Source: Octopus vulgaris (lineage: Eukaryota). From it: a DNA stretch of 64,000 nucleotides. Location of the stretch: positions 45,384,001 through 45,448,000 of the forward strand of contig OX597828.1 of the NCBI GenBank assembly GCA_951406725.2, read 5' to 3'. This document shows positions 32,890 through 43,009 of this stretch, one piece after another (the first letter of the stretch is position 1; each line of letters opens with the position of its first letter). The notes below the pieces were generated by a model that ran no database searches, was not told the DNA's origin, and worked only from the letters and a program-made list of their open reading frames with translations. Position numbers and translations under genes: made by a program.

Positions 32890-33400
32890 TTACTGTTATC
32901 TGTTTTGTCTAGTTTCCTTCCAAAATCAAATTTCCAATCATACCTACATTTACCATTTTCTTATGATCCACAACTACTAGTAAATTATCACTGGTTCCTC
33001 TCCTTTTCATGGTGTTGTCCTTATCAGGTGACTACATCACTTTATTTTCTGCCGCTTTCCTTGTTCTCATTGTTCCATGGCCCCAAGATTCCATATTCTA
33101 AATTTTCATATTCATCGAAATATTCTGTCTAAGCCTATAAAACTGATTGTGCTAAGACATGTCTCTCTTTGATCTGTATTCTTCACCTGAATAGCTTCCA
33201 GCCATTCCAAAATGCGAAATTATTGATTTTATGCTGCATACTTTCCATGACACACTGAACATACACCATTCTTAGAATTAATGGTATTGAACATTGTATA
33301 AAAAGACCAAGGGGTCAAACTAAACAACCTTATAAAATTTCTGTTATTGATTTCACTATTTCCTAAATCTTTAGCAGAATACGAAGAAAGAGGGCCTACT
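32890..33400 (-). pseudogene. Third R4/Dong-like RT fragment
   Basis: Shares TGATTTTATGCTGCATACTTTCCATG...AGAATTAATGGTATTGAACAT with the 29160-29260 region. Confidence 0.55.
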
Positions 33401-33519
33401 TTTCTGGTGGTATCTTTCCTTTTCCTCTTAGAATTCTAATGACTTTTGCTTCATCTCTCGTTTCAATATATCTTTGGAACAGTATTAGTAGCACAATCGA
33501 GTATATCCAATATGCTCTG

Positions 33520-33630
33520 CAAACGAGACCTTCGAAGACCGAAGTGGAGAAGGGGTCCGTGCCAACGGCGGTCAAGCACGGGTCAGTCGGTCCTAAGAAG
33601 CGGGCAAAAGCTTCCACGAAGGGAGCCAAA
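33520..33630 (+). rRNA. Retroposed 28S rRNA fragment (~110 nt, ending in D7a), fused to a SINE
   Basis: CAAACGAGA.CTT.GAAG.CCGAAGTGGAGAAGGG.TCC.TG..AAC.GC.GT..A.CA.GGGTCAGTCGGTCCT matches the conserved eukaryotic LSU segment. The CCGTGC/GCACGG helix shows compensatory changes. Confidence 0.88.
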
Positions 33631-33632
33631 GA

Positions 33633-33861
33633 GGCGGTGAGCTGGCAGAATCGTTAGCACGCCGGGCAAAATGCGTAGCTGTATTTCATCTGCCGTTACG
33701 TTCTGAGTTCAAATTCCGCCGAGGTCGACTTTACCGTTCATCCTTTCGAGGTCGATAAATAAAGTGCCAGTTACACACTGGGGTCAATATAACCGACTTA
33801 ATCCGTTTGTCTGTCCTTGTTTGTTCCCTCAATGTTTGGCCCCTTGTGGGCAATAAAGAAA
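33633..33861 (+). mobile_element. SINE family B, 3' partner of the 28S chimera
   Basis: Full head to tail. TSD CAATATGCTCTGCAAA at 33508-33523 and 33862-33877 encloses rRNA plus SINE. Confidence 0.9.
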
Positions 33862-34140
33862 CAATATGCTCTGCAAAGGGATTGGTGCTAAGAAGGACAC
33901 CCACCTATAGAAATCATGTCACAGATTGATATACATGAGCAAAATGTGCTCGACTGACCCTCATAGGTAGGATGATAACTTCCAAATAAGAACTGGTGAG
34001 CTGGTAGATTCATTAGAGCTTTAGTAAAAGCACATATTCTCTGGTGTTTGGTTTCGCTCTTTATGTTCTGAGTTCAAATCTTACTGAAGCCAACTTTGCT
34101 TTTCATTCTTTCATGGTTTATCTTTTAATTCAACAATAAC

Positions 34141-39363: not shown

Positions 39364-40274
39364 ATAGGTTTCTAGAAAACTGTGAGTATACATGAGCTGA
39401 GCACAGGATGAAGAGAGCAGCTTGATAACCTGATCTCAGATGAAGAGAGGAGCCACATGAATTTTTCTACTCCAGGCACAAGGCCCGAAGTTTTGGGGAA
39501 GCAGGTAGGCAGTCGATTAGATTGACCCCAGTACACAACTGGTACTTAATTTATCGATCCCAAAAGGATGAAAAGCAAAGTCAACCTCATGGAATTTGAA
39601 CTCAGAACGTAAAGACAGACGAAATACTGCTAAGCATTTATCCTGGCGTGCTAACGTTTCTTATTTCTTTATCGCTCACAAGGGGCTAAACATAGAGGGG
39701 ACAAACAAGGACAGACAAAGGGATTAAGTCGAATATATTGACCCCAGTGTGTAACTGGTAATTATTTAATTGACCCCAAAAAGGATGAAAGGCAAATTTG
39801 ACCTCGGCGGAATTTGAACTCAGAATGTAGCGGCAGATGAAATACCACTAAGCATTTGTACCAGGTCGCTGCCTTAGGAGCTACATGAACTGAGCTAGAA
39901 ATAGTAGGAAGCAAATAACGGATCGAATCTTGGCATTGTACTTGTGTGAATTTCTTAAAATTTGGTATGATAGAAAGTGCATGATAGTAGTTTCCAGAGA
40001 TAAATAAAGATTGGCACTAGAATCTGGTAAACTAATAATGGTCCACATTGGAAGGAATCAGGTGGGAAATAACGATTAAAGATATATGCAAGTTACTGTA
40101 GCATGAAATGAAGTGGAGAATAATGTTCCAAGAAAAGTAACTTATTAAATAAATCTTGGTGTCTTGATCGTATTGCATATCTCTTTTGTTACCTAATTCA
40201 AACTGACATAGACAAGCACGGGAATAAAAAGTTTGCTCTCTGTCCTTCGTCATTGTAGTAGTAGTAGTAGTCGC

Positions 40275-40547: not shown

Positions 40548-43009
40548 TGCTGCTGCTGCTGTTGTTGTCTCTACTATAATTTGTTTTACTTTTTTTTTTC
40601 GTAGAAGGCCTGTAGTAATTGGGTTTTTGTTTTTCAGCTTTTGGAGTCTACAAGACTGGCGAGTGGTTAGGGAGAGAAGTAATAATTTGACAGTACTGGA
40701 AACCTAACCTGAATGCTTGCAACAGAACAGATTCTCCTGAAGGCCCCCAAATGAACTGGTACCCCAATATGTGGTCTTTGAATCAGTAGACATGTGTTGC
40801 AAGATATTTGAGCCATGACTATTTTTCATCATCTTTTATTCAGGTACAGACAGACGTGGCTGCAATGGTTTAGAAGTTGACTTGGCAACTATGTGGTTTA
40901 AGGTTCCATACCTCTGAGTGGCACTTTACTGAATGGTGATTATCCTTCCCTGTTTTTTTAGATGGGTGATCCCTCTGATGCATTCACCATAGTTGTGTGC
41001 ATGAAAGAGACCCTGTCTCAATTTTGTTGCCACAGCCAATACAAATATGTTTTAATGTGGATGGTGCCAGGTATCCTGGGGATTCATCCAACAGCCAGTC
41101 AATCAACACATCCAGATGTGTAGATGTAGACTTATCCTCCCTAGATGCATTAGCATAGCTGGGGAGCGGGAGGTTTGCCTCAGACAGCACTTTTAAAGGA
41201 GTACCAATTCTGGATCTGCTGTAGGCATTATGTGTTTTTTGTAGGGCAGCACACACTCTAGCTACGCTAGTGCCTAGATACCTATTTCTTTACTACCCAC
41301 AAGGGGCTAAACACAGAGAGGACAAACAAGGACAGACATTGGTATTAAGTCGATTACATCGACCCCAGTGCGTAACTGGTACTTATTTAATCGACCCCGA
41401 AAGGATGACCTCGGCGGAATTTGAACTCAGAATGTAGCAGCAGACGAAATACTGCTAAGCATTTCGCCTGGCGTGCTAACAATTCTGCCAGCTTGCGCTA
41501 GTGCCTAGATACCATCCAGTCAGGACTAGAACAACTAGTGAACGAATCCTGACTGACTCCAGCTGAGCAAGCTATAAGAGTTTTCATAATCAAGGGCCTG
41601 AAGAATAAACTGGCTAAATCGGACATTTCACTTATCACTTGGTGAGTCAAAGCAGCTCAAAACAGAAAATGTTGCAAGTAAAACAAAATAATGGTCAGAT
41701 CAACACCTGAGATAGTTCTGACTACAGCTGTCCTCCAGAATGAGTATTTAAAAAAATTCCATGATGACCCACCTGTGCCTATTTATTGATCCACAGGGAT
41801 GTCATTCGATGTCTGCATTGTTTCCAGTGACACAGGAAATGACACAGAATGGTTCAATTTATGGTCAAATCTGAAACTTTTCGCATTGTTAGTTTACCCA
41901 CGTGTGGAAGGATAAATTTGGCATGGTTGCATCTACCCGACATCTACCCGACATGTCTCAACCAACACCTGTTAAGAGAGTGATCCCTTTCACTAAACCC
42001 TCAGGGTGCTTTTAGCAGAACCTTGTTCTGTTGTAACCATCCAGATCAAGTTTTAGCTTTCAGAAAATCATTCTCCCTTCCTTATTGATGGTCTTGAAGG
42101 TGCCATAATGGTTTATAGGTACTGCCTTCTATCCTCAATAAGAAGTAGGTTACAAAAAGACACAAAAAAAAATGAAAAGGTAACAAAAACAGAAAACACA
42201 GAAGTGAGAATGATAATGATGATACAATCATGCTGACAATGATAATGAAGACGATAATGATGGTGGTGGCGGTGGTGGTGGTGGTGGTGGTGGTTGTGAG
42301 GGTCATGGTTTTCATGATGATGATGATGGTGATGAGGATGCTAGTGCAAATGCAAGAGAGTGATATTCAAAGCATTGAATCTTTACGTAATAATACTGAT
42401 GATGATGATGATGATGATGACGACGACACTGGTGGTGATGATGATGACAATGATGATGATGATGATAAAGGGGAGGAGGGAAGGTGGGGATGATGAAGAT
42501 GATGGTGATGATGTCGATGATGATGACGACAATGACGATGACGATGATAACGATGATGATGATGATGGTGGTGATGATGACTACAAAAATGGTGATGACG
42601 ATGATGATGGTGGTGGTGATTGTAGTAGTGGTGGTGCTGCTGGTGGTAATGATGATGACGATGATGAAGATGGTGGTGGTGATGATGGTCATTGCAAATT
42701 TTTACCTGGTACTTCAACAATACTAAGAGCATTTCTAATCAATCAATTTGAAGTGACAGTGAAGTGGTGAAGAGGTAGGTTTGTAATCAAAGGTAGAAGA
42801 AAGGATGGCAAACACAGTTGTGGAGATGGTGGTGGTGGTGGCGGTGGTTGTGGATGTGGATGGTTATCCAGCATTCACTCTCCTGTCAGTCTCTCTCTCT
42901 ATATATAAATACATATATGTGTGTGTGTGTGTATATATATAAATATATACATTATAAATAAATAAATAATTACACGCACACACACATATATATATACATA
43001 TATATATAC

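Follow-up and report, generated by a model that had tools for sequence, protein, structure and literature searches.

The locus described here raises two questions: how a piece of 28S ribosomal RNA came to stand directly in front of a SINE, and whether the position at which the rRNA stops records a cut in the RNA itself. The locus lies in a 64-kb stretch of the Octopus vulgaris genome (the window, from whose first letter all positions are counted). It is delimited by an exact direct repeat, 33508-33523 being identical to 33862-33877 at 16 of 16 positions, so that the perfect 16-bp target site duplication (TSD) seen in the initial annotation of this DNA is confirmed. The 16-mer has no further occurrence on either strand of the 64-kb window, and the chance of such a TSD is about 7e-7, given the base composition of the flanks and allowing 10 nt of slack per end. 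The interval between the TSD copies is 338 nt long and has two parts, 28S rRNA and then SINE, arranged as follows.

33508..33523 (+): 5' TSD copy, with 2 nt at its end (possibly 4) in common with the rRNA
33524..33631 (+): 28S rRNA fragment, sense, 5'-truncated, 108 nt, ending inside D7a, 34 nt past CCTAAG
33543..33562 (+): equivalent of the upstream one of the two conserved 20-mers that flank the hidden break (Natsidis et al.)
33592..33631 (+): D7a part, starting at CCTAAG, with its last nucleotides aligned to the distal-hairpin loop of the Rfam model
33632..33861 (+): tRNA-type SINE, 5'-complete, long-tail subfamily
33862..33877 (+): 3' TSD copy

The rRNA is placed 5' of the SINE in the same sense, the 3' end of the SINE is present, and a single TSD surrounds both; among the repeats listed, none surrounds either part alone. 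At the inner junction no extra bases are evident, and the A at 33632 can be assigned either to the rRNA or to the SINE. The direct joining of about 110 nt of LSU rRNA to a full SINE, claimed at the outset, is thus borne out, with 108 nt of rRNA and a SINE that starts at 33632.

The rRNA part has a G+C content of 60% (33524-33631), the flanks 30-35%. Positions 1470 to ~1584 (of 3401) of the Rfam model LSU_rRNA_eukarya align to 33518-33633 with an E-value of 0.12, which is below the gathering score; at the gathering threshold Rfam gives 0 matches in the window. Scanning of metagenome contigs for a conserved 28S motif yielded 71 28S loci, and the same motif gave 0 matches in each of the genome contig and viral contig sets. 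One of the 71 loci, L017, is identical to 33522-33597 at 74 of 76 positions (BLAST E 7e-33), and a second, L052, gives a similar match; upstream of the conserved motif both agree with the window at 51 of 53 nt. Two substitutions, at 33555 and 33574, separate the rRNA part from rDNA, and L017 differs from it at these two positions as well. Bins covering 33516-33623 have rDNA-like contig depth in three of four runs (thousands to hundreds of thousands, with 6-28 in the left flank), and in those three contig sets 33555 and 33574 are two fixed differences from the window. The rRNA pieces listed reach 33616 at most, and 33617-33631 are assigned from bin depth together with the Rfam alignment. Folding of the rRNA piece gives an uninformative z-score of -0.58. 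The raw DNA run X21, which was probably filtered, is likewise uninformative and places 2 of 12.9 million reads, none of them on the rRNA.

The close relatives of the rRNA piece have ends of their own: L017:1-323 and L052:1-321, from contigs that may be RNA or DNA, terminate 2 and 0 nt past CCTAAG, respectively. Such an end within 65 nt after CCTAAG is found in both close relatives (2/2) and in 3/69 other loci. The L017 contig is 1919 nt long, roughly the size of a 28S-alpha fragment. Depth falls toward the end of the rRNA piece in the RNA-like run X12, although contigs cannot reveal RNA ends. We give no weight to this fall or to the ends of L017 and L052.

The SINE part belongs to a family with many copies in the window. 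Its 5' boundary at 33632/33633 is marked by loose contig ends "before 33632" in 100, 92 and 27 contigs, and the element starts at the modal 5' end of its family. A long 3' tail is common to this SINE and four other copies in the window, the element itself being about 2 nt shorter at the 3' end. What we take to be A-box-like (~33641-33652) and B-box-like (33705-33717) motifs lie within it, and ARAGORN identifies 0 tRNA genes in the window. Of the four sister copies, one has a clean TSD, one lies inside a TGG repeat, and two are without a TSD. The first of these (41285-41493, minus strand) has an exact 18-bp TSD as well as an 11-nt internal deletion, so that a TSD of 16 bp is of normal length for the family. 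The window also carries head-to-tail tandem SINE pairs at 39511-39857 (-) and 63454-63797 (+), and many tail-to-head SINE joints are present in contigs, so that multimers of the family appear to be common.

At the 5' junction, the last letters of the TSD are shared with the rRNA, which had been described as a CAAA microhomology. L017 and L052, which are the closest 28S sequences, have CGAA before the junction, and this gives a microhomology of 2 nt (AA); CAAA is the reading of the Rfam consensus. That much of the claim stands, and the full 4 nt are found with the consensus but not with L017 or L052. As deduced from 31-letter assembly words, the contig ends of run X6 agree with a microhomology of 2 nt and those of X3 with one of 4 nt.

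Position of the rRNA end relative to the hidden break

In protostomes, according to the accessible part of Natsidis et al. (PMC6925239), 28S rRNA is broken in D7a, between two conserved 20-mers that are a median of 105 nt apart in molluscs. CCTAAG is given as the start of D7a in the portion of PMC12880105 available, and excerpts of two further studies (PMC2048585, PMC4671170) place the cut in the loop of the distal D7a helix. The rRNA of the element ends about 69 nt beyond the first marker (33543-33562), and the second marker is outside the fragment. By its distance from the first marker and its position in the Rfam distal-hairpin loop, the end lies between the markers and in distal D7a, where a 28S-alpha fragment would end.

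A finer comparison is offered by Drosophila, whose 28S coverage gap is given as 1814-1858 and whose methylated Cm, Am and Gm trio is listed at 1679, 1691 and 1692 (main text and supplementary table of PMC11014333, each in part). The same spacing, a C followed by A at +12 and G at +13, is also present in L017, which puts the Am equivalent at position 33510 of the window. We take this C/A/G motif to be the conserved trio, and the spacing fits. Counted from Am, the rRNA end at 33631 is at +121, and the gap in the fly, a single reference species whose boundary is set by read coverage, is preceded by base +122. The core from Am to CCTAAG is near-constant in length among the 71 loci (87 nt in 52, 88 in 13 and 91-93 in 6) and is 87 nt in the element. 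Offsets are therefore transferable up to CCTAAG, while indels are possible beyond it. Past CCTAAG the D7a of flies is unlike that of molluscs, so that chance may account in part for the agreement to 1 nt. Were the end placed uniformly, it would come within 5 nt of a given site in 0.2-0.3% of cases, a figure that takes no account of the element having been picked for ending near the break. In 41 of 43 distinct D7a segments (taken from the loci retrieved and apparently mostly non-animal), the distal hairpin is predicted to have its apex beyond +34, so that the rRNA of the element ends on the alpha (5') side of the apex.

The claim that the rRNA ends near the hidden break is accordingly supported, if indirectly, by the Drosophila offset (+121 against +122) and by the distal D7a loop, with the octopus end itself placed by analogy. 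The searched supplement of Natsidis et al. (PMC6925239), as far as it was accessible, contains no cephalopod name, and the available text of an octopus ribosome preprint maps a separate break in H88 and depicts the protostome gap as a schematic only (PMC13321053). We infer that D7a of Octopus vulgaris is probably cut at the position equivalent to 33631. As the rRNA stops within 1 base of the equivalent of the fly cut, it is likely that the element arose through a single accident of copying and preserves a trace of the corresponding cut in this animal. Overall, the link between the chimera and the hidden break is fairly well supported, and it is testable.

The window holds a second, older 28S fragment at 1619-1695 (+), between AT-rich microsatellites. 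Its core (1644-1689) is identical to L017 at 37 of 46 positions (E 2.6e-6), and 0 of 1000 shuffles reach its score. No SINE or TSD was noticed with it, and it ends about 110 nt short (upstream) of the endpoint of the chimera. The 28S queries spanned about 620 nt around D7a, and other pieces of rDNA could be missed.

Formation of the chimera and rival explanations

A single retrotransposed chimera is well supported by the one TSD, the same orientation of both parts, the 5'-complete SINE and their compatible divergence. The rRNA differs at 2/74 positions (2.7%) and the SINE has private changes at 12/220 (5.5%), a comparison of low power (Fisher p 0.53). Contigs of single-copy depth join the left flank to the rRNA in X3 (33300-33549) and in X6 (33309-33551; a run labelled as a different organism); in X3 the SINE and the right flank are likewise joined (33835-34100). 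These outer-junction contigs hold 26-28 nt of the insert, which is below the 31-letter bridging rule. Among the matches listed, no contig lies over the inner rRNA-SINE junction. There is no empty-site joint among the 15 joints listed (107 more exist), and X3 and X6 have the filled left junction. Within the window, rRNA stands ahead of the SINE head in 1 of 15 SINE-head matches. All depth of three runs has the rDNA letter at 33555 and 33574, which argues against an abundant family with the rRNA variants of the element, although contigs drop rare variants. The element is probably a non-functional single copy.

Non-LTR reverse transcriptases jump from the 5' end of one template to the 3' end of another with pairing of a base or two at most, according to the accessible parts of PMC8594491 and PMC2912911. 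The SINE is complete to the modal 5' end of its family, which is the point where end-to-end jumping starts. We therefore rather favour a single retrotransposition: the reverse transcriptase probably copied the SINE to completion, and its next template, reached by a jump, was likely the free 3' end of 28S-alpha. A LINE enzyme would have introduced a nick at the target site and started cDNA synthesis on the tail of the SINE, would have run off the 5' end of the SINE at 33632 and continued on 28S-alpha for about 108 nt, and the cDNA may then have been joined to the upstream target end via a microhomology of 2 (at most 4) nt. That the SINE was copied first follows from its tail, which abuts the 3' TSD. 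The same sequence of SINE and then jump had been proposed at the outset; the one TSD and the 5'-complete SINE speak for it, whereas a single copy cannot separate jumping from ligation or from the use of a decay fragment.

The latter distinction bears on the endpoint. The insertion may have been single and yet have involved a switch to a 28S decay fragment, or annealing inside the exposed A-rich D7a loop, in which case the end would reflect accessibility and not a programmed cut. The 18 human 28S/LINE-1 chimeras draw internal segments from all over the 28S, as far as their description is available (PMC13174262), and humans, as deuterostomes, are without the D7a break in the account of Natsidis et al. 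(PMC6925239, in part). Tailless retrocopies of rRNA likewise end in loops, which the accessible text of PMC5322556 ascribes to internal priming. In the element a short overlap is possible, given an A-rich rRNA end and AGG as the first letters of the SINE, and the older 28S fragment at 1619-1695 ends elsewhere. However, agreement with the fly end to 1 nt is tighter than a loop that is tens of bases wide requires, and we regard an origin from decay or loop annealing as unlikely. RNA ligation would leave the meaning of the endpoint intact: were the 28S-alpha end joined to SINE RNA by an RtcB-type activity before reverse transcription, the end would still mark the break. An endonucleolytic RNA end could serve as a substrate for RtcB ligase. 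Sense orientation suits ligation as much as it does template switching (PMC13174262, in part), and ligation has been proposed for U6/LINE-1 chimeras. We nevertheless hold this route to be improbable, given that the SINE is 5'-complete and that the end of a primary transcript would not suit RtcB. Primary Pol III transcripts have a 5' triphosphate, and RtcB needs a 5' hydroxyl.

The remaining explanations concern whether the two parts were joined at this locus and in one step. The fusion could be older, with a SINE in the D7a of an rDNA unit or an rRNA-headed master, of which the present element would be a 5'-truncated daughter within a small subfamily. D7a varies in length and tolerates change, and SINE 5' extensions that became subfamilies are known from the part of PMC4494074 available. 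Against such a history, which appears quite improbable, rRNA is found in front of only one of the 15 SINE heads in the window, and three runs contain no abundant family with the variants at 33555 and 33574. Two independent events, a SINE insertion and a later break whose repair captured rRNA at the 5' edge of the SINE, or else an artefact of assembly, would agree with there being neither an empty site nor a piece covering the whole element among the matches listed, and with the nominally higher divergence of the SINE (5.5% against 2.7% in the rRNA). The difference in divergence is not significant, though (p 0.53), the second insertion would have had to fall exactly between TSD and SINE without loss or duplication, and the outer junctions are present in contigs of other samples, which tells against an artefact; we give these explanations very little probability.

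Related chimeras and significance

The class to which the element belongs, chimeric retrocopies made by LINE machinery, is already known and includes 18 human 28S/LINE-1 loci and snRNA/Alu chimeras. Its closest counterparts, the human 28S/LINE-1 chimeras, are similar in that 28S sequence is 5' of a retroelement, in sense orientation in 83%, over 50-482 nt and as one insertion event; the accessible text ascribes them to template switch or RNA ligation (PMC13174262). The partner here is a 5'-complete tRNA-type SINE and not the 3' end of LINE-1, and the host is an invertebrate. With a SINE as its 3' part, the element falls outside the strict 28S/LINE-1 class. The human 28S segments come most often from 3,636-4,115 nt (PMC13174262, in part), whereas the present one ends at the D7a hidden-break position (Drosophila-equivalent). 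Chimeras of snRNA with Alu and of U6 with LINE-1, which are cited in the available part of PMC4494074, also combine, within one retrocopy, a cellular RNA with a SINE or LINE placed behind it. In those the captured RNA differs from the internal piece of 28S found here, which has a 3' end only once the 28S has been processed or has decayed. Such snRNA/Alu and U6/LINE-1 chimeras were reportedly explained by template switch in work by Buzdin (2002) and Garcia-Perez (2007).

Three further systems share single aspects with the element. The biochemistry is supplied by the R2 reverse transcriptase, which jumps end to end between templates with 0-1 nt paired, but in the accessible parts of PMC8594491 and PMC2912911 this is demonstrated in vitro for R2, whereas the enzyme of this SINE is putatively that of a LINE. 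SINE28 is likewise a retroposon with 28S-derived sequence, but in the portions of PMC4994717 and PMC4758252 available it is a multicopy mammalian family derived from the 28S 3' end; the present piece is from the middle of the molecule (1470-1584 of 3401) and is in one copy as far as seen. Tailless rRNA retropseudogenes are 5'-truncated 28S copies with TSDs that end in single-stranded regions, and they prime directly on the target (PMC5322556, in part), whereas in the element the rRNA is separated from the 3' TSD by a 230-nt SINE. Our literature search, in which few subscription papers were covered, found no report of an rRNA retrocopy that ends at the hidden break.

If the endpoint is the 28S-alpha end, it would follow that in the germ line the end left by the hidden break is free and that a retroelement enzyme can use it. 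The element, itself probably inert, is mainly of value as a fossil marker of rRNA processing. We tentatively suggest, as a possibility less likely than its opposite, that LINE reverse transcriptases repeatedly land on the processed internal ends of rRNA, and that protostome genomes keep a base-precise, datable record of the hidden break. If this is true, a stack of 28S retrocopies, compared by their 3' ends, would locate the break of each lineage from DNA alone, and gains and losses of breaks could be dated, including the octopus H88 break. The same test is applicable to that break as it is mapped in the accessible text of the preprint (PMC13321053).

Flanks and neighbouring sequences

An extended homology between target and rRNA upstream of the 5' junction was considered and is not robust, since 36/339, 6/330 and 9/315 positions score equally and 57, 12 and 16 of 399 random targets equal it. 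An rRNA-derived empty site was likewise rejected, 126 of 1000 shuffles scoring equally well. The flanks contain three matches to rRNA, at 33486-33493 (8 nt), 33884-33895 (11/12) and 33951-33960 (10 nt, inverted); they are treated as chance because the empty site, when reconstructed, does not outscore shuffled sequences. Pfam searches of 99 of 110 selected frames identified neither a reverse transcriptase nor a host gene in the vicinity of the element. Just 3' of it is a decayed second SINE head (33988-34117, plus strand). Elsewhere in the window, a Pfam PHD-finger match (PF00628, E 1.1e-5) at 19768-19968 on the plus strand may be a host exon or a remnant of a LINE ORF1.
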